A program made the position numbers and the translations under genes. Below are positions 5,745-30,733 of a stretch of DNA of 64,000 nt, piece by piece; position 1 is the stretch's first letter; every line of letters starts with the position of its first letter. The notes under the pieces were generated by a model, which was not told where the DNA came from, ran no database searches, and was given only the letters and a program-made list of their open reading frames with translations. The stretch is from positions 1 to 64,000 of the IMG/VR virus record IMGVR_UViG_3300036820_000015. One strand, written 5' to 3'. Source of the stretch: a virus.

Positions 5745-6404
5745 ATGACCGGCCCTGGCCGCCCTGGAGGCGCTACCCGCTCCCCTGCCGTCCAGGCCCA
5801 GCACCAGCGGGTCTGGCTGCTCTGGTCGGTCATGGGGAAGCGCTCATATGTCGACCTGGCCGCCGCCACCGGCTACTCCTATGACCATGTGCGAGAGATC
5901 ATCCGCGAACAGATCCTGTTGCAGGCTGAAGAAGAGGATGTCGTGGAGTACCGGCGCCAGCTGTGGGCCGACCTGGAAGAGGTCAAGCTCACGCTCGCTC
6001 CGGCGTTGTTCCCCCGCTCTCTACCTGACGGCACGCCATTGCCCGAAGGTATCGGTGTCATCCCGGCCGACAAGGATGCTGCGGCCACCTTCCTGAAGTT
6101 CTGCCATGAGCAGGCTCTGCTCGTCGGTGCCCACGCTCCGAAGCAGACCACCACCACCCACAAGGTGGAAGAGAACGCTCAGGCCGATCAGTTCGCCAAC
6201 GATCTCACCGAGTGGATGGACCTGGCCGACAAGCTCGGCATGTCCGGCTACGGCAGTGGACGCGAGGAACTCTCCCACGAGGATGCTGAGTCGGTGCTCG
6301 ATGCTGACATCGTGCCCACGCCGCGACCGCCGCTACTCGAACAGGTGGAGGAAGCGGCAAGCAAGACCAACGGCCACACACCTTCGGCACCGATCAATCT
6401 ATGA
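5745..6404 (+). CDS. terS: Terminase small subunit
   Basis: N-terminal HTH (SYVDLAAATGYSYDHVREII); ATGA-coupled to terL. Confidence 0.65.
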   Translation: MTGPGRPGGATRSPAVQAQHQRVWLLWSVMGKRSYVDLAAATGYSYDHVREIIREQILLQAEEEDVVEYRRQLWADLEEVKLTLAPALFPRSLPDGTPLPEGIGVIPADKDAAATFLKFCHEQALLVGAHAPKQTTTTHKVEENAQADQFANDLTEWMDLADKLGMSGYGSGREELSHEDAESVLDADIVPTPRPPLLEQVEEAASKTNGHTPSAPINL

Positions 6405-8062
6405 CCGCCACAATGGATGGCGTGGACCTACAGTCCATCCGCGATCGTGCTGTCATTGCTGAAGATCGCCCCTCGGCCAAGCTCACCACCGACGAACAAG
6501 AGCGCTTCGCTGAGCTGACACAACGCCTGCTCACTATTCCGTACTGCCCATGGACGCCTAACGCCGGGCCGCAGACTCTCTTCCTGCTCGATCAATCGCG
6601 CGAGTCCCTCTACGGTGGCGCCGCTGGTGGCGGCAAGTCCATCGGTCTGCTCATGGCCGCCTCCATGAACCTGTACGTGCCCGGGTACTCAGCCCTACTC
6701 CTGCGTAAGACTTTCGCTGACCTCGGTCGCCCGCTGGCCTTGATGGACCTGGCCGAGCAGTGGTGGGGTGGAGTACCGGGCGTTAAGTACGACGCGCAGA
6801 AGCACACCTACACATTCGACTGTCCTGGTGGTGGCCACTCGCGTATTGAGTTCGGAGGTCTCGACAGTGTCAACGACAAGCTCAAGTACCAGGGCGGTGG
6901 CTACAACTTCGTCGGCTTCGATGAGCTTACCCAGTTCCGCGAGTCCGATTACACTTACCTGTTCTCCCGAATGCGTCGTCAGTCCTATGCTGCTATCGCT
7001 CGTATCCCGATACGCATGCGCGCTGCTACTAACCCCGGCGGCCCCGGACACGAATGGGTCTATCGACGCTTCATTGCCAACTGGCTGGCGTGGCAAAAAG
7101 GCCTTGCTCAGCCTCCGAAACGTCGCTTCCACCCGGCTCTCCTAACCGATAACCCCGGTCTCGACTGGGAGGACTACGTCGGCAGCATGATGGAGCTAGA
7201 TCCCATCACGCGCGCGCAGCTGCTGCGTGGTGATTGGAACATTCGACCCGATGGCCGCATGTTCTCACGCAAATGGTTTACGCCTATTACGCGCGATGCT
7301 GTTCCCGGTAACTGTGTATGGGTGCGCTTTTGGGACATGGCGGCCGCCGAACCCACGCCCGGTCATGACCCCGACTACTTCGTCGGTGCTCTCCTCGGTC
7401 GTTCACCCGACGGCCGAACGTTCATCTCGGATATCCGTCGTTGGAGAGAAGAACCGGGCATGAGTGACCTGCGCTGCAAAGCAACAGTCCTGCATGACAC
7501 GGGTCGCGTGACCCAGGTGATGGAGAAGGACCCAGGCGCCGCTGGCAAAATAGCGATACGCCATTTCCGCAACGGCCCGTTTGCTACTGCCACTTTCCAT
7601 TCTGTAGATAGCACTGGGAAGTCGCGTGGCCGCACGACGACAATCCAAGCAGGGAAGAACACGCCTACCTCCAAGATCATCGCTGCAGGGCCATTGGCCT
7701 CGCACGCAAATGCGGGCGAAGTATTCGTGGTAATCGACGGTAGCTGGGACCATGAGGCCTTCCTCTCTGAGATCGAGATTTTCCCCGACGGCGAACACGA
7801 CGACCAGGCTGACGCCGTATCGGGAGCGTACAACTACCTGGCTGGTCATGACCTGGCTGTACCATCATCCATGGCTGACGGTGAGGAGCAGTTGGAGCAA
7901 CAGAACTACTGGGCGCCGAGTCCGATGTCCTGGGGCTTCGACACGGCTGGTGGATACGAGGGTGAGAGGATCAGTCGCGCTGTGGCCAATGTCACGCAGG
8001 AGGCAGCGCGCGCGGCAACGGGACGCGTGATGGCGGAAACGATGGCGGCCTTCGATGTCTGA
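6401..8062 (+). CDS. terL: Terminase large subunit
   Basis: Walker A YGGAAGGGKS, Walker B VGFDELTQF, ATNPGGPGH, nuclease motifs WDMAA and HDDQADA. Confidence 0.95.
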   Translation: MTATMDGVDLQSIRDRAVIAEDRPSAKLTTDEQERFAELTQRLLTIPYCPWTPNAGPQTLFLLDQSRESLYGGAAGGGKSIGLLMAASMNLYVPGYSALLLRKTFADLGRPLALMDLAEQWWGGVPGVKYDAQKHTYTFDCPGGGHSRIEFGGLDSVNDKLKYQGGGYNFVGFDELTQFRESDYTYLFSRMRRQSYAAIARIPIRMRAATNPGGPGHEWVYRRFIANWLAWQKGLAQPPKRRFHPALLTDNPGLDWEDYVGSMMELDPITRAQLLRGDWNIRPDGRMFSRKWFTPITRDAVPGNCVWVRFWDMAAAEPTPGHDPDYFVGALLGRSPDGRTFISDIRRWREEPGMSDLRCKATVLHDTGRVTQVMEKDPGAAGKIAIRHFRNGPFATATFHSVDSTGKSRGRTTTIQAGKNTPTSKIIAAGPLASHANAGEVFVVIDGSWDHEAFLSEIEIFPDGEHDDQADAVSGAYNYLAGHDLAVPSSMADGEEQLEQQNYWAPSPMSWGFDTAGGYEGERISRAVANVTQEAARAATGRVMAETMAAFDV

Positions 8063-11214: not shown

Positions 11215-11250
11215 CTAGTCCACCCTTCCACCGCGCGCGCGGACCATGCT
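11215..11250 (+). promoter_or_regulatory. Phage promoter motif before portal
   Basis: CTAGTCCACCC with GTCC at 11218, CATGCT at +27, ATG at +40. Confidence 0.7.
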
Positions 11251-11257
11251 GGCCACA

Positions 11258-13321
11258 ATGCCCGACGACTCTCCCACCGCGTCCGCTCTCGAAGACGCCA
11301 ACATGACCAAATGGGCGGGCGAACCCTCAGCCTCCTCCGGTCTGGCAGGCACTTCCACCGATCCGGCTGACCTGAACTACGACGCCCAGAAGAAGCCGAC
11401 ACCGTTCACCGAGGTCGGTGCCACCGGTCTCGCTCAGTACGGCGGGTTCATCCGCGAAGAGTTCCTCATCCAGCTGAGTGGTGACGCCGCCCTCAAGACC
11501 TGGCGTGAGATGTACGACAACGACGCCATCGTCGGGGCGTTCATGTACGCCGTGACGATGATCTGTCGGCAGGTCGAATGGCGCGTCGAGCCGCCCGAAG
11601 CAGCGACAGTGGACGATATCGTCGAGGAGAGGATCGCTGAGCGGCAGGCGAAGATTCAGGAGGCACAGCAGGCTCAGCAGCAGAAGCTGGCGATGACACA
11701 AGCAGGCCTTGCTGCCAACTCCACCAATCCCCGTGGGGCTGGTCCCGGTGGCAAGCCCGCTCCAACTCAGCCACCAGGGATGGGTCGGGCGGGACTAGCC
11801 GGGGCGGCGGGGGGAGCGCCCGGTCTCCACGAACCCATTGGCGGACATCCCACAGCAGGCGCAACACCTCCTGGTTCACCCGGTCCGAATCCACGTACCC
11901 AGGCTACCCTCCCCGGCACCAACGCCCCCGGCGAGTCCAATACCCCCGGCACCAATCCCGGTGGTGGCCCGGCTCAAGCTGCCGCCCTCGGTGGCCTCAC
12001 CGGTCTTCCTGGCGCTGGTTCACCGAAGAAGAAGCTCTCCAACCCGAACGATCCACCGTTCGCTGCCTCGCGCGACACCGATCCCCCGGGCTGGGTGCGC
12101 AACGTCCTCACGCGTCTCCGTAAAGCCGGTTCCGGTGGCGGCATGGTTGGTGGCATTGATGAAGGCTCAGCCGATGCCAACGCTGTCGACCCCGAGACTG
12201 ATGAACCTCTCATCTACCCAACCGGTGCCGGGCCCGAGGACATAACGCCCGAAGCGCGCAAAGCCCTCGAACTCGCTGTCCTGGTCGAGACCGCCCTGCA
12301 CGACATGTCCAACTCCTGGGCCGAGACGGTGGCCGAAGTCTTCACCATGATCCCCTTCGGCTTCGCTTTCCACGAGATCGTCTACAAGAAGCGCAACGGG
12401 CCGAATCCTGATTACCCGGAGCAGGGCTCGAAGTTCTCCGACGGCCGCATCGGTTGGGCCAAGTGGGCCGGGCGTGCTCAGGAGACACGTTTCCGTTGGG
12501 AGTTCGGTGACCACGGTGAAGTGCTCGGCATGTGGCAGCTGGCGCCCCCGAAGTTCCAACTGCGCTATCTGCCGCTCTCCAAAGCGCTTCTCTTCCGCAC
12601 CACCGGCTACAAGGGCAACCCGGAAGGCAAGTCCTCTCTGCGCTCCGCCTACCGCTCCTGGTACTACCTGAAGCGCATTCAGGAGACCGAGGCCATCGGT
12701 GTCGAGCGCGACCTGGCCGGTCTCCCTGTCTTCAAGGTCCCAGCCAAGATGATGTCGGCCAACGCCACGCCGGAAGAGAAAGCCGTTCTGGCTGCCATCA
12801 AGAAGCTGGTACGCAACATCCGGCGCAACGAGCAAGAGGGTGTCGTGCTCCCCATGGAGTACGACGACGATGGCAACGAGATGTATACCTTCGAGCTTCT
12901 CGCTTCGCCCTCGCGTCGGCAGTTCGACACCAACCAGATCATCACGCGCTACGAATCGCGCATGGCCATGACCCTGCTGGCTGACTTCATCCTCATGGGT
13001 CATGACGCCGTCGGAGCGCGCTCGCTCGGTGAGACGAAGACCGACATGTTCACCACGGCCTTGGAGGCCTTCCTCGACATTGTGGCTGACGTGGCCAACA
13101 CCTTTGCTGTACCGCGACTCATGCAGCTGAACGGTGAGGACCCGGCTATGTCGCCCATCATCAGCCACGGCAAGCTGGAGACGGTCACGCTGGAGCAGAT
13201 CGCTGCGATCATCACCGCACTGAGCGGGGCTGGGGATGACCTGTTCCCGGACACGAGTCTGTCGGACTGGGTGCGGGATAAGTTCGGGGCGCCACCGAAG
13301 GCAGCATCACCGGACCTGTAG
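11258..13321 (+). CDS. Portal protein (DUF935-like) with a large Pro/Gly/Gln-rich insertion
   Basis: EVGATGL..YGG.IREEF, ND.IVGA, FGFAFHEIVYK, GNPEGKS.LRSAYRSW, AIGVERDLAGLP. Confidence 0.9.
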   Translation: MPDDSPTASALEDANMTKWAGEPSASSGLAGTSTDPADLNYDAQKKPTPFTEVGATGLAQYGGFIREEFLIQLSGDAALKTWREMYDNDAIVGAFMYAVTMICRQVEWRVEPPEAATVDDIVEERIAERQAKIQEAQQAQQQKLAMTQAGLAANSTNPRGAGPGGKPAPTQPPGMGRAGLAGAAGGAPGLHEPIGGHPTAGATPPGSPGPNPRTQATLPGTNAPGESNTPGTNPGGGPAQAAALGGLTGLPGAGSPKKKLSNPNDPPFAASRDTDPPGWVRNVLTRLRKAGSGGGMVGGIDEGSADANAVDPETDEPLIYPTGAGPEDITPEARKALELAVLVETALHDMSNSWAETVAEVFTMIPFGFAFHEIVYKKRNGPNPDYPEQGSKFSDGRIGWAKWAGRAQETRFRWEFGDHGEVLGMWQLAPPKFQLRYLPLSKALLFRTTGYKGNPEGKSSLRSAYRSWYYLKRIQETEAIGVERDLAGLPVFKVPAKMMSANATPEEKAVLAAIKKLVRNIRRNEQEGVVLPMEYDDDGNEMYTFELLASPSRRQFDTNQIITRYESRMAMTLLADFILMGHDAVGARSLGETKTDMFTTALEAFLDIVADVANTFAVPRLMQLNGEDPAMSPIISHGKLETVTLEQIAAIITALSGAGDDLFPDTSLSDWVRDKFGAPPKAASPDL

Positions 13322-14128: not shown

Positions 14129-14338
14129 ATGACTGAACTCAGCGACGCCACCGATCAGGAGATAAGTCGAGGAACTCACCCGGCGTGGCTCTCTCCCTCG
14201 TTGCAAGTGCAGCAGATGGTCGACTTACATCGGGGTCTGGGACCGAGACGGAAATACTCTTCGGTGTCAGGGATGCCGCAAGGCTGTAGCGAAATGTCAG
14301 TGTCGATGATGACCGACTTTGAGCTAAATCCGACATGA
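14129..14338 (+). CDS. Hypothetical protein
   Basis: Fills the operon gap, ATGA-coupled downstream. Confidence 0.45.
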   Translation: MTELSDATDQEISRGTHPAWLSPSLQVQQMVDLHRGLGPRRKYSSVSGMPQGCSEMSVSMMTDFELNPT

Positions 14339-14550
14339 CTGAGCCGATCCCCCACTGGACCAGTCGGAAGTTCCGTGGCGGCCAGATGTTTACTCTCCGG
14401 GTCCAGCGAAGGACGTTGGCTCGGGTGGCGGTCCAGGACGAAGTTCTCTACCGGACGTTTTGGGAGACCAAGCTTCCTATCCGTGTAGGCAAGCACTCTT
14501 ACGACGCGTCCATCCGCTATGGGTTGCCGCGCGTGGAGCAGGTGTCGTGA
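14335..14550 (+). CDS. Hypothetical protein
   Basis: Coupled ORF. Confidence 0.5.
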   Translation: MTEPIPHWTSRKFRGGQMFTLRVQRRTLARVAVQDEVLYRTFWETKLPIRVGKHSYDASIRYGLPRVEQVS

Positions 14551-14873
14551 CTGTCCATCCTCTGACTGATGATGACGAGGCCATCTATCAACGTTTGTGC
14601 ATGCTCATCTCTGAAGCGGGGTACTCTTCGGAATGGGTGAATCGGGTCGGACGATTGACTGACTGTCTGACGGTTACAGCTACCGATCATGGCAAAGAGG
14701 TTATTCCTGCTGAAGTGTGTTGGAAGGCCTTCGATCTCGCATACGGCCGGACGCTTGGCGAAACTGAAGGCATCGTTGAGGGGAAACTCCACTGGGGAGT
14801 CGACCGAAGGACGGGGCTCATTTTCGCTGAGGTCTATGGGAATCGCCAAGAAGATGACGACGCATCCTCCTAA
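14547..14873 (+). CDS. Hypothetical protein
   Basis: GTGA-coupled ORF. Confidence 0.5.
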   Translation: MTVHPLTDDDEAIYQRLCMLISEAGYSSEWVNRVGRLTDCLTVTATDHGKEVIPAEVCWKAFDLAYGRTLGETEGIVEGKLHWGVDRRTGLIFAEVYGNRQEDDDASS

Positions 14874-15318
14874 GTTCGACATGAGCGGAAGCGTGCTATG
14901 GCAGAACTGTGTGGAGTGGGAACTCTCGTGTGACAGGTACGGATACGGACAGGTAATGATTACCGTGGCCCCCAAGCAGCGGCGTCTCATGCGTGTCCAT
15001 CGTGCTGCTTGGGTGGCTATCTTTGGTGAGATTCCACCTGAGGTCCATCTGCTCCATCGCTGTGATAATCCACCCTGCTATAACCTGAAGCACTTATTCA
15101 TTGGCGACCAGGCAGGCAACATGGTCGACAAGATTCGCAAAGGTCGCCAGCCGATTGCTTACAAGTTCAAGGAACGCGAGGGTCCACTGACAGCAGAGGA
15201 GATGCAAGAAGCCGAGAAACTAATAGCTCAAGGACTCTCGCAGGCCGTTGTGGGAAATATATTCAATGTCAGTCGGAGTTATATTGCCAAACGATTTAGA
15301 ATATCGGCGCTCCGATGA
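14854..15318 (+). CDS. HNH endonuclease (free-standing homing type) with C-terminal HTH
   Basis: C.EW...GYG...VHRAAW...LHRCDNPPCYN..HL..G...N..D..KGR; AT-richer than the flanks. Confidence 0.9.
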   Translation: MTTHPPKFDMSGSVLWQNCVEWELSCDRYGYGQVMITVAPKQRRLMRVHRAAWVAIFGEIPPEVHLLHRCDNPPCYNLKHLFIGDQAGNMVDKIRKGRQPIAYKFKEREGPLTAEEMQEAEKLIAQGLSQAVVGNIFNVSRSYIAKRFRISALR

Positions 15319-16397
15319 TTCGTCCGCCTCGCATGGACATTCCCTATCTCGGCGGCCCCGAAGACCGCATCTTCGCCGCCTTCCACGACTCCTACTCCTC
15401 AGCCGCTCACGTCTGGCGCACCATGGCCAGCCGCGTCTTCGCTCTCGACGATCCATTGGCAGTAGCCCACACTGCAATGGACGGTGACGCTCTCAAGTTC
15501 TACGAGGCCCTTGTCCCCGAGCTCGAACTAGCCCATCGCACGGGAGCGGCCCGAGGCCGCAAGCAAGTTGCCGCAGTACACGACTGGACTTGGCCGACGG
15601 CGACTATCAAAGCGGCTATGCCCGCCTACTCCGATCCCATCTACCCCATTCGCGAACTCCACCTCCCCCGCTGGCCATCCTCCATCCGCATCCCCCCAGT
15701 GCCGCGCGCGCATCGCACCTTCGGCCACGCTCCTCTCTCCCACATAGACGCCGCCCGCGACCTCGCCCTCAACCTCGTCACCCAGGTCGACCAGACTCAA
15801 CGCGACACCATCGCCGCCATGATTACCGAGGCCATCACGCGCGGCTTCGATGCCGATCTCACCGGGCTCCGTATAGCCAATGTCGTTGGCCTCTTCCCCC
15901 GCTGGCAGCGCGCCGTCGATAATCTCTTCACCAACATGCTGAGCAACGACGTGCCGCTCAGGATCGCCCAGAAGCGCGCTGACGACTATGCCGACTCACT
16001 CCGCGAGAAGCGTGGGCGGATGATCGCGCGGACCGAGCTACTCAGAGCTATGAATAGCGGGCGGCAGGCGGGCTGGCAGAGCATGGCGGATAAGGGTCAG
16101 CTGGACCCCGAACGCTCAATCAAGGAGTGGGTAAGTGCATCCGTTGGTGCTTGCGAGGAGTGCGACTACCTTGGTGATGTTCAGGGTAGTGGGCACGGGT
16201 ACCGCGTACGCGGTATCGACGGTCTGTTCCCTACCGAGTGGGGACCGATTCCGCATCCGCCAGCGCATCCGCACTGTCGTTGCGCGTGTATCCTCCATCC
16301 GGTGTTCGTCTCCTTAGAGCGCGACTCCGATCAGGAAGCTATGGACGACGCTGATCTCAACAACCCGGAGATGGCTCAGATTCTGCATCTCGTCTGA
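15315..16397 (+). CDS. MuF-like minor head (head morphogenesis) protein
   Basis: RMIARTE..RAMNSG, KEWVS, CEEC, PPAHPHCRC. Confidence 0.9.
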   Translation: MIRPPRMDIPYLGGPEDRIFAAFHDSYSSAAHVWRTMASRVFALDDPLAVAHTAMDGDALKFYEALVPELELAHRTGAARGRKQVAAVHDWTWPTATIKAAMPAYSDPIYPIRELHLPRWPSSIRIPPVPRAHRTFGHAPLSHIDAARDLALNLVTQVDQTQRDTIAAMITEAITRGFDADLTGLRIANVVGLFPRWQRAVDNLFTNMLSNDVPLRIAQKRADDYADSLREKRGRMIARTELLRAMNSGRQAGWQSMADKGQLDPERSIKEWVSASVGACEECDYLGDVQGSGHGYRVRGIDGLFPTEWGPIPHPPAHPHCRCACILHPVFVSLERDSDQEAMDDADLNNPEMAQILHLV

Positions 16398-20663: not shown

Positions 20664-20945
20664 GTGCCTCCCGCCCCAGCCAGTCCGACGCCGGACCCGC
20701 CCATCGTGGCTCTCACTCCTCCTGTGGCCCCCGTTCCGGTTACGAAGAAGTCGTTCTGGTCCCGCTTCGACCTCAGTGACGCCTGGCACTTCATCGTCCT
20801 CTACGGCGCCACCCTCATCTCCACCGGCACCATCACCTCGATCCCGAAGACGAAAGACGCCCTCCTGGCTCTGATCCCCGGGGCTGTCTCGGTGCTCGTC
20901 CATCAGATCACCAAGCAGAACCAAGCGAGCCAGCCAGCCCCATGA
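20664..20945 (+). CDS. Holin-like two-TM protein
   Basis: Two hydrophobic helices; GTG start at the promoter +40 position. Confidence 0.5.
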   Translation: MPPAPASPTPDPPIVALTPPVAPVPVTKKSFWSRFDLSDAWHFIVLYGATLISTGTITSIPKTKDALLALIPGAVSVLVHQITKQNQASQPAP

Positions 20946-21172
20946 CCACGGTCGCCAACCTCCATTCCGTGTTAGCCAGTGATGGAGCGATTGGTGGGAT
21001 GACGCTCACCGGAGGCCGCGCTCCGCGCACCGCGCGCGCGGGGAGAGTGTGCGAGCACCCAAGTTGCAGCACCGTTCTCTCGATCTACAATCAGTCGGAG
21101 GGGTGTGCCGAGCACTCGAAGCCGGTGGATCTCCGACGGACACTCGGGGTTCAGGTACCCTCAGCGCGGTAG
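20942..21172 (+). CDS. Small Zn-finger protein
   Basis: GRVCEHPSCSTVLSIYN...CAEH. Confidence 0.55.
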   Translation: MTTVANLHSVLASDGAIGGMTLTGGRAPRTARAGRVCEHPSCSTVLSIYNQSEGCAEHSKPVDLRRTLGVQVPSAR

Positions 21173-21181
21173 CGTGTCGGG

Positions 21182-24100
21182 GTGCAGGCGCTCCCGATCA
21201 GGCTGAGGAAAGACGGTCCCTCTCAGTCAGATGTCCACACCGACGGTCCCGGCACCATCGGCCCCGTCTGCACCTTCTCTCCCGGCCCTGGCTTCAAGAC
21301 GTGTCCGAAGTGTGGTGGCGACCCGAGCACGCACATGGCGCCCCCGAGTATTGCTCAGCTGGAGAAGGACAGAGCAGTCGCTCAGCCCCTCCGTTGCCCG
21401 AAGTGTGGGAGCACAGATACCGGCCTCCTCCCTCCCGACTTCGAGACACTGAAGTGCCATGCGTGTGAGAGGAATTCTCCTTTCATCAAAGCGGCTATCT
21501 CTGTCGCTGGCCTCTGCGTCAAAGCTATTGACACCGGCCGCGTCCTACTCATCGAGCGAGGAGTTGACCCCAATGACCCAGCCTCCGAATGTTTCGAGTT
21601 CCCCGGCGGCCACCTCAACCCCGGAGAATCCCCCGCTGACGCAGCACTCCGCGAGTGGGCCGAAGAGGTCGGCGTCCATCCTCCACCCGGTTACTTCCTC
21701 TCAACTTGGACCCATGGGATCTATCGAGGCTTCATTTATCTCACTGCTACCGAGACCATTTCACCCGAGCACTGGCACGCTCACAGCAATCCCGACAATC
21801 CTGACGGGGATGTAGTCGAGAGTGCGATGTGGGTCGATCCGCGCGCTGCGCGGAGTTTCACTGATCTACGCGCTGAGCTAAAGGGGGACACTGCTCTCTG
21901 GGACCAGATTGAACGAGCCGGGACACCGTATGCATTACTCCCCATCTCGCTCTACAAGGAGGCTGCTGGCCACCCCTTTCGCGGCAACCAGTACACCGGT
22001 GGTGTCGCCTCCGCCCAGATGGGCTCCAACTCCGAACTCGAACGACACGCTCACGCCTACTCCAACTCCATCGGCCTTTCGCGCCCCACCGACATCGATT
22101 ACTCCAAAGTGAAAGTCGACACGCCCACGGCCAAGTCCATCGCGCGCGCCTATGACGCTCTCCCCAAACGCGATCCCGAGGCCTCTCCCGCCTTCGCCCA
22201 GATGGCCAAGGAGATCGAGCAGCAGTACGCCTATCTGACCGGGCCCATGGGCATCAAGGTTGATGTAACGCGCGAAGACCCTTACGCCACGGTCCAGGAG
22301 ATGCAGCACGATGTCACGCAGAACCACCACATCTCGGTGCTCTCGACTGCCCTCACCGGTCATCACCCCTACTTCACCGACGAGCAGAACGATCACTTCC
22401 GGGCCGTCCACGACACCTTCGGACATGCAGCCACCGGTCGTGGTTTCGACCGCCATGGCGAGGAGGCAGCCTGGCTATCCCATTCTCTGATGTTCTCTCC
22501 CCTGGCGCGTCGCGCTATGACCACTGAGACACGCGGCCAGAACTCCGTGCTCACCCAAGAGCGTCACGGCTTCCCCGAGCAGAAGGTGGCACTGCTGCCG
22601 GACAAGTTCTCTACCATCCCTAACTCAATCATCCGCAAGATGATGAGGAAAGCATTAGTGGCGCAGTCGACTCTGCGGCACTGTATTGCTGGGCGCGCTC
22701 AGTTGGACCGGATGCAGTGGCAGCCACCATTCGCCAAAGGATTCTTCCCATTCCTCAAGTTGGGTAATGTCACTTGGGACGAACAGAAACACCCGCGCGG
22801 CCAGCCCACCAACGCTGGAGAGTTCGCATCAGACCCCGGTGGTGGGAGTAAGAAGCCAAAGGGGATTGGCAGAAAGACTATGGGCTCAGCCACTCCCGTC
22901 ACCGACGATGATGTCCCCGGCGACAACATTCAGAACCATGAGGGCACAGCCACTCTCAACGAGGCTATGCAGGATCAGGAGGCTAAAGCTGGAGGTTCGG
23001 GACAGGCTAAAGCTCAGGTGGCCCATCTGGTGTCGGCCGATATGGTGGATAACTGGGGGGACAGGTTCGATGCCAACTTTATGAGGTCTCGGAGCATCAG
23101 CCCGGAAGACCTGAAGATTCCAGGGGCACTCGTTGTGAAGAACCTCAACGACGGCTCGGTGAACGTCTGGAAGCCAAGTAAGCACACGGGTGGGATTGGC
23201 TCCTTTTCGATAAGTTTCAATGAGCGCAAGCAAGCTGTCCCGGCCAACTCCCCCGAAGCCCTCACCGCTATCCGCGAAGGCGGAGTCTCCTCCCTCATCT
23301 CCCTCTGGGCCGGTTCCTCCAACGACTCCTCCGACAAGTCCCTGGCCATCCAAGACGCCGCCATCGCTGAGTTCGGACTCAAGAACACCTCCGAGTGGAC
23401 CGAGTACCGTAACCCTGACTCCGTCAAAGAGGAGTTCGACAAGAACGGTGACATGTACCGAGCCTTCCTCCGCTCCCAGTACAACGTCACCCAGAAGGAC
23501 CTGGCTGCACGCGGCGTCACTACCGTCATGTTGGAGCGCGGCGTCAAAGACGACCCTGAGACCAACGACGCTGAGGACAATGGTGATGGCACGGCCACGG
23601 TCAAGATGCGGCCACTCTCCTCCTGGTCAGTCAACCCCGACACTGCTGAGAACTCCTTTGGCAGTGGGGGGACGACGTATCGCGCTGAGTTTCCGGCCAA
23701 CCGGATTCTTTCCACCACCCTGACCGGATTTGGCTGCCTGGGTGAGAGTGAGGTGGTGCCGCTGGGGGATCAGGAGACGGTGGGTCTCGTGGGTGGGCAG
23801 TGGAATGGTGAGAGTCAGTCCTCTATCAATGAGGAGTGGGCATCTAATGGGCCGCAACAGGAGTGGGCTGACAACATCACCGAGGGATCTGATGAGACCT
23901 ATAGCGAGGATGATCTCAGCAGTATGTGGGCTGAAGAGATGGAGTCGCAGAACTCTGATGCCGTTGCCGCTTGGCTCTCAGGCCAGGACGATATAGAGAA
24001 TCTCACTACCAAACAGGAATGGGCTGAGAGCTATACCTCCGACTATGACGCAGCCTCAGCTGAAGGCCCTGTCACTTCGGAGGAGCTTGATGACGGTTGG

Positions 24101-25395: not shown

Positions 25396-27468
25396 ATGAC
25401 CACCCTTCTCGATGCCGCTGAGTCCACTGCCTTTGCCGAGATGCCGGACGACCGGCTCATTTCGGCTGAGGATGGACTGCACAAAATGTTCGCCGTGAAG
25501 AAAGCAGCTGGGCTCGACACCGTCGAACTCCAGTCGGCTCACACTCTGCTCGCCCGGCAGATGTTCAAGCGGGGCCTCTTCTACGAGCCCCTCACCGCCG
25601 AGCCTGCTCCCCTGGCCCCGGCTCCCGAGACCCAGGTGCGCAAGGACATCGGGCCGCACTCCTACTTCTCGGGCTGTTGTGACTTCTCTGCCACCGATCA
25701 CATGGCCAAGGCCGTCGGCACCGATGGCTCTCTCGGCAAGGCTCTCGCCTCCACCACCGAGGACCGCCAGCAGGGAGCCGAGAACGGCCTCGCTCTGCCC
25801 GATGGGTGTCTGGCTGCCGAGACACTGGTCACCACTTTGGATGGCCCCCAGCGGATCGACTCCCTCCTCGGCCCCTGCACCGTCCTGACCGATCAGGGCT
25901 GGGTGGAGGCTGAGGTCCGAGACTTTGGTCTCGGGACCCTCTTCGAGGTGGTGCTTCGACGTGGGTCCGAGGAACGGACAATCAGCGCCACTCTCAACCA
26001 CCGCTGGGTTACAACCGATGGCACCTTCGTGACGACCGACCAACTCAGGGATGTGGAAATCCCCTTCGTCGATATGGCAAACTTTGCCAATGTCATCACG
26101 TCGCGTCCCGCCCGATCAACGCAAGCACTTGCCAGCATTGGTGGTGGGAGGGCCGGAGACGCATCAGGTCTGCTCGAAGTGCGGGAAGAAGAAACCGGTA
26201 GCGGAGTTCTACGTCCGCAAGATTGTCCAGCCCAACCGGTATCGCCGAGACTGCATCAAATGCTGTCTCAAACGGACGACCGAGTACGGGCTGGCGAATC
26301 CCGAGAAGAGTGGACGCAATGCTCGACGGGCGAAGCTCAGGACCTTCGGTCTCACAGAGGATCAGTACGAAGCATTGCTCGACGTTCAGGCCGGGGTCTG
26401 CGCTCTTTGCGGACACTCCGAACGGGACTCGACTCGAAAACGCCTACCAGTGGACCATTCGCATCGGCTTGGGCATGTGCGCGGGCTCTTGTGCGCTTAC
26501 TGCAATCGGCAGTTGGGATGGATCGAATCCATCGGGGTGGGTCGCGTCATCGGATATCTCCTTGGCGAGTCGTTGCTGTTGCAGCAACCTCCCGCACCGA
26601 AACCGTCTACTGCGCTGTAGTCCCTGGGCTCCAGCGTTTCGTCCTGGCTGACGGCATCCTCACCGGGAACTCCTTCTACATCCCCGACGAGGCCCATCTC
26701 CACGCCTGCATCCGTCTCCTCGACCAAGCTCCCGACCCCCAGTCGGCCATGAACCACATCATCGAACGGGCTAAAGCCATGGGGCTCGAATCGGCACTCC
26801 CTCCGGCTTGGCGTACCGGTGACGGCACTCCCGACGCCACCGATCCAGCCATCAGTGACGGTGCCCACTCCATCGCTCCCGGCACCGCCCCCACTGCCTC
26901 TGGCCCACCGCGCGCCGGAGCTACCCAGCCCGCCAAGGCCAAGCCCAAGCCCACCTCGGCTCTCATGAAGGCCATCGCCAAGTCCGTCGTCAACGGCGAG
27001 TTCTCCGAAGACCTCTTCGCCAAGGCGGCCGAGGAGATCACCCTGGACGAGAACATCCCGACCTACTTCGTCATGAAGTCGGCCAACACCACCGAGCGCT
27101 ACACCTTGGGCCCGCTCTACATGCCCAACACCCTCGACGCTCATGGCGAGTGGGCCTCAGCCACCGACCTCTTCAAGGCCCGGCTCGACTATGTGCGCGA
27201 GGGGGACCGGACGATCTACCTCCAGCACTCCACCCACCCGGCCGGGGAGTGGGTCGACATCGTCCAGTGGCCCCAGGAGGTCCGCTCCACCATGCAGGTC
27301 ATGGGAGCCGGTGGCGTGAAAAAGGCCGAGGCCATCACCTTCCCGGCCGACACCGTCTACCTGGGTGTCGTCTGGGAACCGTGGGCCCACACCGAAGTCC
27401 TGAAGGGCAATATCCAGGGCTTCTCCATGGGCGGTTGGGCTCACCGCATCGAGGGTCTGCCCGCCTGA
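25396..27468 (+). CDS. Prohead serine protease precursor (XkdF-like) containing an intein
   Basis: C-terminal RYTLGPLYMP..DAHGE...IYLQH...YLGVVW...IQGFSMGG. Confidence 0.85.
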   Translation: MTTLLDAAESTAFAEMPDDRLISAEDGLHKMFAVKKAAGLDTVELQSAHTLLARQMFKRGLFYEPLTAEPAPLAPAPETQVRKDIGPHSYFSGCCDFSATDHMAKAVGTDGSLGKALASTTEDRQQGAENGLALPDGCLAAETLVTTLDGPQRIDSLLGPCTVLTDQGWVEAEVRDFGLGTLFEVVLRRGSEERTISATLNHRWVTTDGTFVTTDQLRDVEIPFVDMANFANVITSRPARSTQALASIGGGRAGDASGLLEVREEETGSGVLRPQDCPAQPVSPRLHQMLSQTDDRVRAGESREEWTQCSTGEAQDLRSHRGSVRSIARRSGRGLRSLRTLRTGLDSKTPTSGPFASAWACARALVRLLQSAVGMDRIHRGGSRHRISPWRVVAVAATSRTETVYCAVVPGLQRFVLADGILTGNSFYIPDEAHLHACIRLLDQAPDPQSAMNHIIERAKAMGLESALPPAWRTGDGTPDATDPAISDGAHSIAPGTAPTASGPPRAGATQPAKAKPKPTSALMKAIAKSVVNGEFSEDLFAKAAEEITLDENIPTYFVMKSANTTERYTLGPLYMPNTLDAHGEWASATDLFKARLDYVREGDRTIYLQHSTHPAGEWVDIVQWPQEVRSTMQVMGAGGVKKAEAITFPADTVYLGVVWEPWAHTEVLKGNIQGFSMGGWAHRIEGLPA
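25807..26670 (+). mobile_element. Intein, 288 aa (Cys1 ... TGN/Ser+1, WCT signature)
   Basis: Block A CLAAETLVTT.DG, block B ATLNHRW, blocks F/G VYCAVVPGLQRFVLADGILTGN|S; splicing restores ALPDG-SFYI. Confidence 0.93.
26051..26620 (+). CDS. Endonuclease VII-type homing endonuclease in the +1 frame inside the intein (likely start 26090)
   Basis: CSKC..K...EFY...CIKC; FGLTEDQYEALLDVQAGVCALC...LPVDHSHRLGHVRGLLCAYCNRQLG. Confidence 0.9.
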   Translation: MWKSPSSIWQTLPMSSRRVPPDQRKHLPALVVGGPETHQVCSKCGKKKPVAEFYVRKIVQPNRYRRDCIKCCLKRTTEYGLANPEKSGRNARRAKLRTFGLTEDQYEALLDVQAGVCALCGHSERDSTRKRLPVDHSHRLGHVRGLLCAYCNRQLGWIESIGVGRVIGYLLGESLLLQQPPAPKPSTAL

Positions 27469-27573: not shown

Positions 27574-27600
27574 GTCTGCTCCCCAAAGCGTGCGCTTCCA

Positions 27601-27636
27601 TAGGTCCCCCACTCCGCGCGGGCCTAGTTCCACGAT
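27601..27636 (+). promoter_or_regulatory. Phage promoter motif before the scaffold/capsid operon
   Basis: TAGGTCCCCCACT with GTCC at 27604, CACGAT at +27, ATG at +40. Confidence 0.8.
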
Positions 27637-27643
27637 GGCACCA

Positions 27644-28558
27644 ATGCCACCGCAGCAGATGACGAGGATTCGTCTCAAGGAGAACTCAGGGGTCGACCAT
27701 CCGGCGCACCTCGTCGAGGGTTGGATGTTCACCAAGGCCGCCACCGATGGGATCTCCGAAGAGATGGCCCTCCTGCTGGCCAAGGCCGAAGCCGTTTCCA
27801 TCGGGATCGACCCCGAGACCATCACCATCACGAAGGGAACCACTCCCATGCCGAAGCTGCCCGACGAGGTCTTCAAGTCCCTCGATCCTTCCGTTCAGGC
27901 CCACATTACGGCCATGGAGAAGGCGGCTGCCTCCCACGCTTGGGCCGACTCGAACTCCGACGGCAAGTGTGACGTCGAGGGTTGCTCGATGGCCAAGTCC
28001 GAGCACATGTCCAAGGCGGCTGACCCCGCTCCGGCTCCCACCGGTCCCGAGGCCGAGCGTCTGGCCTTCGAGAAGGCGGTCAACGCCATGGACCCGGCCG
28101 TCCGCGAGATGTTCAAGGCTCAGCAGAAGGAGACGGCCGCCGCCACCGCTCTGGCCAAGGCCCTGTGGGACGACAAGCAGGACGCCCACTTCGAGACCAT
28201 GGCCAAGGAACTCGTCAACCTGCCGGGCATTCCGCCCACCGGTTACGGCTCGGTCCTGCGCAAGGCCTCCGAAGCTCTGGGCGACGAGACCTTCGAGGAA
28301 CTCTTCAAGTCCATGAAGGGGGCCGACGCTGCCGTCAAGATGTCCAAGGCCTTCGAGGAGGTCGGCTCCGGTCACGGTGGTTCCGGCAATGCGGGTGAGT
28401 CGCTCGAAGCGCTGGCCAAGGAACTCCAGACGGCTGACCCGAACATGACTCTGGCCGAGGCCATGGTCAAGGCAGCCACCTCGCGGCCGGATCTCTACAC
28501 CCAGCACCGCGAAGAGAACATCGCCATCAACCGTGGCGCCACGATCACAGGAGACTGA
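27644..28558 (+). CDS. Capsid scaffolding protein with N-terminal protease-like strand
   Basis: Helical, A/E/K-rich, lies between protease and capsid; N-terminal LKENSGVDHPAH. Confidence 0.75.
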   Translation: MPPQQMTRIRLKENSGVDHPAHLVEGWMFTKAATDGISEEMALLLAKAEAVSIGIDPETITITKGTTPMPKLPDEVFKSLDPSVQAHITAMEKAAASHAWADSNSDGKCDVEGCSMAKSEHMSKAADPAPAPTGPEAERLAFEKAVNAMDPAVREMFKAQQKETAAATALAKALWDDKQDAHFETMAKELVNLPGIPPTGYGSVLRKASEALGDETFEELFKSMKGADAAVKMSKAFEEVGSGHGGSGNAGESLEALAKELQTADPNMTLAEAMVKAATSRPDLYTQHREENIAINRGATITGD

Positions 28559-28561
28559 CGC

Positions 28562-29047
28562 ATGTCCCTCGAAGCCACCCAGCCCTACAAGGTCTCCATC
28601 CCGGTCTCCGCTGCTCTGGCACAGGCCTTGTGGAACGAGGTCCACGCTGCCGGGGCCGCCACGCAGTACACCTTCGTGGCACTCAACTCCTCGGGCCAGG
28701 CCGACCTGCCCGCTTCGGCCACCGACTTCTTCATCGGGGTCATCCAGAACCGACCGGTCGTGAACGCTCAGGGCGCTTCGCAGGCAGGTGGTGTGCCGGG
28801 TGAGATCGTGGTCATGGGTGTGACCAAGATCGTGGCCGGTGGCACCATCACGCCGGGCGAGTACATCGGTCCTCTCTCGACCGGCAAGGCCCAGGCCGTC
28901 ACCGCTCAGGGCTTCGGTGCCTCCTATGTCCAGGCCACCAAGAAGATCCTCGGCCAGGTCTACCCGGCGGCCGGGATCACCTCGTTCGCCTCCGGTGACA
29001 TCGCTTCCGCCATGGTCAACTGCCTCCAGCCCATCCCGGGCACCTGA
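28562..29047 (+). CDS. Capsid cement/decoration protein (DUF2190-like)
   Basis: QYTFVAL...IGVIQNRP...GVTKIVAGGTI..G; located before the capsid gene. Confidence 0.75.
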   Translation: MSLEATQPYKVSIPVSAALAQALWNEVHAAGAATQYTFVALNSSGQADLPASATDFFIGVIQNRPVVNAQGASQAGGVPGEIVVMGVTKIVAGGTITPGEYIGPLSTGKAQAVTAQGFGASYVQATKKILGQVYPAAGITSFASGDIASAMVNCLQPIPGT

Positions 29048-29067
29048 TCGACATGACCACTTCCCTC

Positions 29068-29730
29068 CTACAGCATGATGCCGATGTGGTGCTGACGCAT
29101 CCATTGACGAACGCGCTTGAGGTCGGGATGGGCAGCCAGCAGGTGAACGAGCTTGTGGCAGTCGTGGCAAAGGCAGACCATGTTCTCGACCGCGGAGTTG
29201 TTGGGGTCCTCGTCAATATGGTGGACACAGATCCTGGATTCCTTTCGGGTCCCTCCGCAGAGAACGCAGGTATCTCCGTCCCGTTGGACGACCAGGACAC
29301 CGGCCTCTCCGTAACTCGTCCTGACGTTTCGGAGACGCTGCCTTTCAGCCCGTTCTCCGTCGGTGAGGGCCTGTCGAGTCCGCCCTTCCGAGGTTGCTCG
29401 ACGCCTAATGGCCGTGTCGCGATGGGCAGCGCAATAAACCGGAGAAGGAGCTTCAACCGGGTTGTCGCACTCAGCGCAGACTCCTCGCCTTTGGCGTTCC
29501 TTCCGTTGCTGCTTGCGCCACTCAGCACCTTGGGTGCGGCAGTCGACACAGTTCGTCTCTCCGGGGTTGACCGGAGTCCCGCATCGGAGACAGAGCCCTT
29601 TAGCCCGCTTGATGGCGGCATAGACGGTGTTCTCATGGAGACCGAGGATGCGAGCGGTCTCCCGCCCATTTCCGGTCTGCACGAAGACCTCAAGGATCTG
29701 TCCCTGATCGGCTCTCATCCGGCGTGGCAT
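29068..29730 (-). CDS. HNH endonuclease, antisense within the capsid operon
   Basis: N-terminal HTH, Zn knuckles, RDGDTCVLC...VHHIDEDPNN...NMVCLCHDCH; TGC-TAGGTT-6 nt-ATG leaderless promoter. Confidence 0.9.
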   Translation of the reverse strand: MPRRMRADQGQILEVFVQTGNGRETARILGLHENTVYAAIKRAKGLCLRCGTPVNPGETNCVDCRTQGAEWRKQQRKERQRRGVCAECDNPVEAPSPVYCAAHRDTAIRRRATSEGRTRQALTDGERAERQRLRNVRTSYGEAGVLVVQRDGDTCVLCGGTRKESRICVHHIDEDPNNSAVENMVCLCHDCHKLVHLLAAHPDLKRVRQWMRQHHIGIML

Positions 29731-29773
29731 GGCTGCAACCTAGCAGCTTCCACATGTACAAGGAGAAAGTGAT

Positions 29774-30733
29774 TTGCCACAGCCATCGCAATCGGACGTC
29801 CACGTAGACGCCATCATGACGCAGTTCTCGGTCGCCTACATCCAGAAGGCCGAGGACTTCATCGCTCAGCAGGTCTTCCCTGTCGTGCCCGTCGACAACC
29901 AGTCTGACCTGTACTACATCTACAACAAGGCCGACTGGTTCCGTGACGAGGCCGAGAAGCGGGCTGACGCCACCGAGTCGGCCGGGTCCGGCTACACCCT
30001 GGCGCAGGGGAACTACTTCTGCGAGGTCTACGCCTTCCACAAGGACGTGGGCGACCAGGTGCGTAAGAACACCGACTCGCCGCTCGACGCCGACCGTGAC
30101 GCCACCATGTTCGTCACCCAGCGCATGATGGTGCGCCAGGAACGCCAGTGGGTGACGGACTACTTCAAGACCGGCGTCTGGGGCACCGACGTCACCGGAG
30201 GAACCAACTTCACGGTATGGTCCGACTTCGCTGGCTCGGACCCCATGGAGGACATCGAGCTTGGCAAGGAGACCGTCCTCGGCACCACCGGATTCATGCC
30301 CAACACCCTCGTCCTCGGCTATCAGGTCTTCCGCAAGCTGAAGAACCACCCGGACCTGGTCGACCGGATCAAGTACACGTCGGACAAGGTCGTGACCAAG
30401 GACGTCATGGCCAAGTACTTCGACGTCGACCGTATCCTCATCGCCCGGGCCATCTACAACTCCGCCCATGAGGGTCAGGCCGGGTCGTACTCCTTCATCT
30501 TCGGCAAGTCGGCGTGGCTCGGCTACGTCAACCCGTCGCCCTCCATCATGCAGCCCTCGGCGGGCTACGTCTTCACCTGGAAGGGTGTGTCGGACGGCCT
30601 CGGCACCAACATCGGTATCACCCGCTTCCGCATGCAGCACCTGCGGGCCGACCGCATCGAAGCCCAGATCGCCTGGGCCAACAACATCATCGGAAGCGAT
30701 TTGGGATATTTCTTCAGCGGGGCTGTTGCCTGA
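29774..30733 (+). CDS. Major capsid protein
   Basis: MPQP..DVHVD...SVAY.Q...FIA..VFPVVPV, PNTLVLG, L..HP; strong codon bias; AGGAGA RBS before TTG. Confidence 0.9.
   Translation: MPQPSQSDVHVDAIMTQFSVAYIQKAEDFIAQQVFPVVPVDNQSDLYYIYNKADWFRDEAEKRADATESAGSGYTLAQGNYFCEVYAFHKDVGDQVRKNTDSPLDADRDATMFVTQRMMVRQERQWVTDYFKTGVWGTDVTGGTNFTVWSDFAGSDPMEDIELGKETVLGTTGFMPNTLVLGYQVFRKLKNHPDLVDRIKYTSDKVVTKDVMAKYFDVDRILIARAIYNSAHEGQAGSYSFIFGKSAWLGYVNPSPSIMQPSAGYVFTWKGVSDGLGTNIGITRFRMQHLRADRIEAQIAWANNIIGSDLGYFFSGAVA

Follow-up and report, generated by a model that had tools for sequence, protein, structure and literature searches.

How does a large, multi-domain effector protein enter a phage head, and why would its first residues resemble those of the capsid around it? 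These questions are raised by the head-gene region of a 64,000-nt stretch of viral DNA (positions 1 to 64,000 of IMG/VR virus record IMGVR_UViG_3300036820_000015, part of a 77.6-kb IMG/VR viral contig; 61.5% G+C), hereafter called the window. It encodes a polyvalent effector in which a short leader is followed by a peptide, termed the box here, that resembles the N-terminus of the major capsid protein of the same phage (Table 1). An earlier note on this DNA had drawn attention to this resemblance and proposed that the cargo mimics the capsid N-arm to dock in the procapsid. We recovered the match at the very positions reported there, with eight of nine residues identical between effector residues 13–21 (PSQSDVHTD) and capsid residues 4–12 (PSQSDVHVD). 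Our favored reading, to which we assign a probability of roughly 0.55, is that the box imitates the capsid N-terminus in a portable form and would thereby recruit internal head proteins, with a probable cut site adjacent to it.

We scored the window with a position-specific scoring matrix (PSSM) built from the capsid N-termini of 31 relatives, with the window itself excluded. The effector box reached 22.3 bits, compared to 7.8 bits for the next-best site of the window in all six frames, and the maxima of 200 residue shuffles averaged 12.0 bits (standard deviation 2.4; highest 21.1). Judging from these scores, the box in the effector is not a product of chance. A six-frame scan of the window allowing up to three mismatches returned two sites only, the effector box and the capsid N-terminus.

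At the DNA level, the two boxes share 19 of 27 bases, and synonymous codons differ at five of the eight conserved residues. Three codons are identical, against 3.5 expected from the codon usage of this phage. Because identical codons are no more frequent than codon usage predicts, the likeness lies in the protein and not in the DNA, as had been claimed for this pair. Such protein-level conservation may also be compatible with capture from a diverged relative.

Translation of the box peptide is supported by a high third-position GC content in the effector frame from ~20940 onward. The Shine-Dalgarno sequence ahead of the effector start (GTG 21182) is weak, and the box lies in a Pro/Gly-rich, apparently flexible stretch ahead of the first folded domain. 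Just upstream, and in the same frame, is a 76-aa open reading frame (ORF; 20942-21172) with a Cys-x4-Cys...Cys-x2-His motif; between it and GTG 21182 there are only the TAG at 21170-21172 and three codons. This ORF may be an adjacent gene, a case of read-through or a sequencing issue. The capsid ORF reads M/L-PQ-PSQSDVHVD from its TTG, which has AAGGAG 7 nt upstream and, in this sequence context, is a well-supported start.

By sequence (E 4e-98) and fold, the capsid protein is a member of the lambda gpE-like family phrog_1005, and its gene follows the scaffold and decoration genes. It also matches 3BJQ (E 1e-20 by sequence; 2e-33 with a profile), and its model resembles HK97-fold capsids, encapsulin shells among them. 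The closest cultured relatives are Arthrobacter phages (52% identity), and the closest relatives in genome bins are Actinomycetota. Across ~110 loci, the family begins with the near-invariant signature M-[P/A/S/T]-Q-P-[T/S]-x-x-x-V-H-[V/I]-D, which continues into A-I-L-T-N-I-S-V-A-Y. In every case P, A, S or T comes directly after the start Met, which allows methionine aminopeptidase to remove the Met, so that the mature capsid would begin two residues before the Pro. More than 100 capsids start directly with this Met at position -3 from the Pro, and P..VHVD is nearly invariant nonetheless. Three capsid lineages have short leaders instead, reading ..PYRK-SS-P, ..PYRK-SE-P and ..VRK-AQ-P. In the AlphaFold2 model of the window capsid, the fold is confident and residues 1-20 are disordered (predicted local distance difference test, pLDDT, <50). 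Sequence, profile and fold searches of the PDB found no assembled homologue; the sole close entry, 3BJQ, is a crystal of unassembled protein.

Copies of the box in related phages

We compared the window with related capsid loci (labeled L001 to L157) in a sample of 151 loci and 1.87 Mb, which includes 80 capsid loci from a profile search and 30 from genome bins or isolates; IMG/VR contains at least 578 relatives of this capsid. Following first hints in the protease genes of L003, L006 and L017, the capsid-derived PSSM yielded 22 distinct non-capsid matches of at least 15 bits in these loci, all on the plus (coding) strand and none on the minus strand, compared to 0–4 per replicate in residue-shuffled ORFs. 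At least 20 other related phages or prophages carry exactly one extra copy, and every copy lies 2-7 kb upstream of the capsid gene. No locus has a second extra copy, and a PSSM extended into the flanks found no more. A degenerate DNA pattern run on 27 related records had suggested that the second copy occurs only in this phage; that pattern was too strict and the sample too small, and the singleton reading was overturned by the PSSM.

The copies take the form [K or M]-x-x-P-[T/S]-x-x-x-V-H-[V/T]-D, and their carriers are either XkdF-type prohead proteases or polyvalent effectors that share domains with the window effector (Table 1). The box is thus kept in homologous polyvalent proteins of related phages, and in their prohead proteases as well. 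Its carrier switches among close relatives: the L095-type protease has a tagged tail, whereas in L116 and L120 the protease stops directly behind its domain and an effector is tagged instead. In L090 (4130-4700), the protease gene ends seven codons before the box, where the tagged topoisomerase-IB effector starts in another frame, and in L084 and L092 the equivalent box sits within the protease ORF; the sequences suggest that one gene was split, or two were fused, at the tag.

From its N-terminus, the window effector comprises the leader, the box, a Pro/Gly linker, zinc ribbons, a NUDIX domain, a phrog_3170 domain with an HD-x-x-GH motif, a KHPRG..GEF linker, an ADP-ribosyltransferase (ART)-like domain with R-S-E residues and an acidic, Trp-rich C-terminal part. 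With several unrelated effector domains and a gene placed between those for MuF and the protease, it has the makeup of a polyvalent effector. By its profile match, the NUDIX assignment is secure. Counterparts of residues 306-491 and 684-870 occur in polyvalent proteins of relatives that bear the motif; the ART-like domain has homologues in the tagged polyproteins of L073-L078, and the phrog_3170 domain is homologous to gp205 of Rhodococcus phage E3, whose annotation as 'structural protein' is the one hint of packaging in the virion. The effector has neither a MuF nor a peptidase domain, and since MuF is a separate gene here, it needs another way into the head. In L003, MuF is fused into a polyvalent protein that has no box. 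A separate MuF together with a tagged effector is consistent with the tag hypothesis.

A search with the first 100-110 residues of the effector gave no full-length homologue; the matches were the protein itself, zinc-ribbon proteins (residues 60-98) and one repetitive protein. The latter, a 435-aa database entry (P0013), consists of six tandem units of ~62 residues, each with ..N-I-R-R-D-G-P-T-N-S-E-V-H-Q-N-G.., and its unit resembles the leader plus box of the window effector.

The residue at -3 is Lys in 16 of 21 distinct copies, the start Met in three and Val in two. Together with the three leader-bearing capsids, this lends support to the earlier remark on the LRK preceding the box, which was likened there to Lys sites in the scaffold. 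Most copies continue with x-[I/V]-M-G and then a Lys/Arg cluster. Copies also track their cognate capsid, if weakly: identity to the phage's own capsid at the four variable positions averages 1.4 without the window pair and 1.52 with it, compared to 1.04 for shuffled pairings (permutation p without the window pair 0.011; 0.016 with one pair per distinct capsid peptide), by a statistic that makes no correction for common descent. The highest value is that of the window pair, whose copy alone agrees with its own capsid at all four positions. Across copy-capsid pairs, identical residues are mostly encoded by different codons, which argues that selection acts on the peptide and not on the DNA.

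Table 1 Features of the window, with its coordinates, and placement of the box in related loci
Feature	Position or locus	Strand	Basis or remark
Large terminase	6401-8062		
Portal	11246-13321		
Stand-alone MuF-like head morphogenesis protein	15315-16397	+	
Several small genes	between the MuF-like gene and 19163		
Ala/Thr/Ser/Val-repeat protein, 486 aa	19163-20623		
Polyvalent effector ORF, GTG start, 1159 aa	21182-24661	+	begins M/V-QALPIRLRK-DG-PSQSDVHTD
Leader MQALPIRLRK, ten residues, final Lys at position -3 from box	21182-21211	+	sequence read
Capsid-N-terminus-like box PSQSDVHTD	21218-21244	+	PSSM from relatives' capsids
Zinc-ribbon region, three CxxC pairs, after Pro/Gly-rich linker	21269-21472	+	sub-threshold zinc-ribbon families
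NUDIX hydrolase domain	21497-21856	+	PF00293, E 2.9e-15, above Pfam cut-off
phrog_3170 domain, HD..GH motif	22043-22615	+	homologous to domain beside box in L087, L094
ADP-ribosyltransferase-like domain, R, S-x-S, E-x-E	23231-23791	+	DRAT E 0.0033, below family cut-off
Prohead protease, XkdF-type domain at residues 559-686, intein in N-terminal part	25396-27468	+	
Scaffolding protein, likelier start ATG 27659	27590-28558	+	C-terminal helix-turn-helix-like end ..NP-x-LY.., conserved in family
Head decoration or head-fibre protein	28562-29047	+	directly upstream of capsid gene in relatives
Major capsid protein, HK97 fold, lambda gpE-like family (phrog_1005)	29774-30733	+	sequence, profile, fold
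Capsid's own N-terminal box PSQSDVHVD	29783-29809	+	member of family signature
Box in ~45-residue C-terminal tail of XkdF protease, starting ~16 residues past domain	L095, L097, L098, L103, L139		
Box just after XkdF protease domain	L105, L084, L092		
Box just before XkdF protease domain	L089		
Box at N-terminus of ParB-protease, prophages	L157 (Phyllobacterium leguminum ORS 1419), L155 (Brucella endophytica CGMCC 1.15082)		reads M-S-[Q/E]-P-S-A-S-A-V-H-V-D; good Shine-Dalgarno
Box at N-terminus of LigT-protease-scaffold ORF	L017		
Box at residue 8 of topoisomerase IB effector	L090		
Box internal (~aa 144 of open frame) in zeta toxin effector	L120		
Box internal in HNH/DUF6321 effector	L068		
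Box adjoining phrog_3170 and ART-like domains like those of the window effector	L073-L078, L087, L094		

Proposed docking and cleavage, and other possible roles

A docking tag with an adjacent cut would explain three facts together, namely a nearly invariant box in capsids that have nothing to cut off, carriers that are head-internal proteins, and a copy that may be N-terminal, within a linker or in a C-terminal tail, usually with a Lys before it. In this reading, the box would engage the partner of the capsid's own N-terminus, either the C-terminal domain of the scaffold or an acceptor site on a neighboring capsid subunit, and the tagged protein would co-assemble into the procapsid. The prohead protease would cut after the Lys at -3 (between LRK and DG here), leaving two residues before the Pro, the same spacing as in the capsid after Met removal, and the effector would later be ejected with the DNA. 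We infer the binding, the partner, the cut and the packaging from the sequences compared. By analogy with Staphylococcus phage 80alpha, in whose procapsids the capsid N-arm is bound by the C-terminal helix of the scaffold and where capsid and scaffold can share an N-terminal signal (PMC5744158), the scaffold C-terminal domain may be the partner of the box. A complex prediction with capsid residues 22-319, the C-terminal 110 residues of the scaffold and effector residues 1-45 scored 0.00, which is uninformative and no evidence either way. The AlphaFold2 model of the L095 protease with its tagged tail has a mean pLDDT of 53 and a disordered tail. The proposal that the cargo mimics the capsid N-arm stands in part: the conservation and tracking comparisons favor it, and the docking itself is a prediction.

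Several observations weigh against this proposal. Many relatives with 8-10 kb of upstream sequence show no extra copy, and the cultured phages checked (Ottawa and RHEph19) lack a tagged second protein; much of the family must thus do without the tag or have a replacement for it. The order of leader, box, Pro/Gly linker and zinc ribbons was seen once, and of these elements only the zinc ribbon recurs. Furthermore, Lys is absent from position -3 in the L095- and L139-type protease tails, and the x-[I/V]-M-G-(K/R)n continuation is missing from the window copy, which runs into the Pro/Gly linker instead. The tracking statistic's disregard of kinship counts on the same side. If each capsid N-arm fills its own acceptor site, a mimic would have no obvious place to bind, and for every member of the family, binding, cutting and virion association are predictions from sequence.

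The box might instead be solely a recognition or cleavage site of the prohead protease, involved in no docking, which would mark where this enzyme trims itself and the polyproteins, with the capsid resembling it as a present or ancestral fellow substrate. T4- and phiKZ-type proteases do use consensus sites. The box often lies at the borders of polyprotein modules and beside the protease domain, and the conserved Lys at -3 agrees with the K-x-x-P spacing of the leader-bearing capsids. Cleavage motifs common to capsid and scaffold are known, as for 80alpha and the host protease Prp (PMC5744158). However, a pure cleavage site fails to explain why the box is nearly invariant in the more than 100 capsids that have nothing to remove, and its retention there argues that it serves the capsid protein during assembly or once mature. 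At 12-13 residues, the conserved stretch is also long for a cleavage site, each polyprotein has a single site and not one per module border, and in stand-alone proteases, where the box occupies a 30-residue terminal tail, a cut would free a mere short peptide. We therefore hold a cleavage-only role to be unlikely, while a cut beside a docking tag is retained in our favored reading.

It is improbable in our view that the box serves neither loading nor cutting and is instead a signal common to the capsid protein and one partner for another purpose, such as chaperone-assisted folding, translational or regulatory control, or a modification. In favor of this, the invariant His might be modified or bind a metal, each phage has just one extra copy, and chaperone or regulatory roles have been considered for the shared N-terminal sequence of 80alpha (PMC5744158). 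Yet the carriers are heterogeneous and all head-internal, N-terminal, C-terminal-tail and internal copies do not suit a translational signal, and the DNA is not conserved.

Least probable of all is that the box of this phage is a chance match or a non-functional recombination leftover from the 5' end of a related capsid gene: although the window copy, unlike any other, agrees with its own capsid at each of the four variable positions, the N-terminal 100 residues of the effector lack homologues, the purine-rich GAGGAAAG just upstream of the box resembles the capsid ribosome-binding site, and an exact 9-bp direct repeat, GACGGTCCC (21212-21220 and 21242-21250), brackets the 21-nt core and encodes Asp-Gly-Pro twice in identical codons (probability ~0.05; a mark of insertion or mere linker composition), the PSSM score far exceeds the shuffles, the fragment comprises exactly the conserved motif and none of the even better conserved capsid sequence after it, the Lys at -3 and the N-terminal placement are those of functional-looking copies such as that of L090, and homologous effector domains are tagged in relatives.

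The head-gene neighborhood

The 486-aa repeat protein upstream of the effector is built nearly throughout from ~20-residue units of the form ..SV(S/T)xxGxLxIxGAA(T/E)A.. and has no family match. The window protease shows no strong copy of the box by PSSM. Its residues ~480-520 (26830-26960) form a linker, ..D-P-A-I-S-D-G-A-H-S-I-A-P.., followed by a Lys/Pro-rich stretch; given its placement, which is like that of the strong L089 box and the weak L003 box, this linker may be a decayed copy. The intein of this protease has the extein junctions ..PDG/C.. and ..GN/S.., and the protease of the closest relative, L002, carries no insert. In Arthrobacter phage Ottawa (L001), the C-terminal third of gene 87 (14142-15281), annotated as 'RNA ligase', matches the XkdF domain with 46% identity to the window protease, and by sequence the gene is probably a LigT-protease fusion like that of L017.

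The decoration and capsid genes abut in relatives such as L002, whereas in the window they are separated by a gap of 726 bp (29048-29773). The gap contains a minus-strand ORF of 220 aa (29068-29730) with a sub-threshold N-terminal helix-turn-helix, which is probably an inserted gene. An Rfam search of 28900-29900 gave no match.

Comparison with known systems

A close parallel is the capsid-targeting sequence (CTS) of T4, a short terminal peptide on unrelated, injected head-internal proteins (IPI-III and Alt), including an ADP-ribosyltransferase, that is tied to processing by the prohead protease. Across relatives of the window phage, too, one peptide is found on unrelated head-internal proteins, with one non-capsid carrier per phage. 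The T4 tag presumably binds the scaffold core, and it is cut off on its C-terminal side (L-x-E). Here, in contrast, the conserved Lys is on the N-terminal side, so that the tag would stay on the cargo, and there are tail and internal copies as well; among the copies compared, no conserved site lies C-terminal to the box. The T4 tag is not known to copy the capsid N-terminus.

HK97 offers a parallel for the tagged proteases, since its prohead protease gp4 has a C-terminal procapsid-targeting tail outside the catalytic domain, and several relatives have the box in such a tail. We know of no report that the gp4 tail mimics the capsid N-terminus. HK97 has a delta domain and no separate scaffold, and its protease is of the S78 family proper, unlike the XkdF-type S78_2 proteases here. 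Encapsulin cargo-loading peptides are similar in being short conserved peptides that are attached through flexible linkers to the ends of diverse enzymes and direct these into an HK97-fold shell; the box is likewise flanked by Pro/Gly or basic linkers, and the capsid model matches encapsulins. Those peptides are not copies of the shell terminus, and encapsulins have no protease, scaffold, portal or DNA.

In 80alpha, as here, the capsid and another head protein begin with one conserved peptide, the Prp/L27 motif. This peptide is needed on the scaffold for assembly, copies the leader of a host ribosomal protein and is cut by a host protease between F and A (PMC5744158). Unlike the box, it is found neither on cargo nor on a phage protease, and no F-A pair occurs in or beside the box. 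Polyvalent proteins and MuF-fused toxins are large multi-domain effectors whose genes lie among those for the head and for which packaging and injection are predicted (Iyer et al. 2017, PMC5512222). Their repertoire overlaps with that of the tagged proteins (ART, NUDIX-like, ParB, 2H, HNH and zeta). That survey credits MuF or other domains with packaging and fused metallopeptidases with processing, and we found no mention in it of a peptide resembling the capsid N-terminus (PMC5512222).

We found no description in the open-access literature of a tag that copies the capsid's own N-terminus on a protease or on effectors; capsid-targeting peptides are known as a kind, and this form of them is probably undescribed. 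To our knowledge, the routes by which enzymes and anti-defense effectors enter phage heads are known for few models (T4, P1, N4 and MuF fusions). Polyvalent effectors are widespread, and for those without MuF, entry into the capsid is unexplained. If our reading is correct, packaging would be explained in a family spanning Actinomycetota to Alphaproteobacteria, cargo would become predictable from sequence, and a binding partner of the conserved capsid N-terminus in assembly would be indicated. The box would also provide a short, natural 12-residue tag for loading proteins into HK97-fold particles. The hypothesis is directly testable, as prophages of two cultured bacteria carry the tag. In its full form, which we advance tentatively and consider possible at somewhat less than even odds, a cross-phylum, siphophage-like family would use a mimic of its own capsid's free N-terminus as a transferable loading tag: the carrier, be it protease or effector, would be pulled in via the contact of the capsid N-arm, and a cut after the Lys at -3 would recreate a capsid-like N-terminus, a principle distinct from the T4 CTS, from MuF anchoring and from encapsulin peptides.

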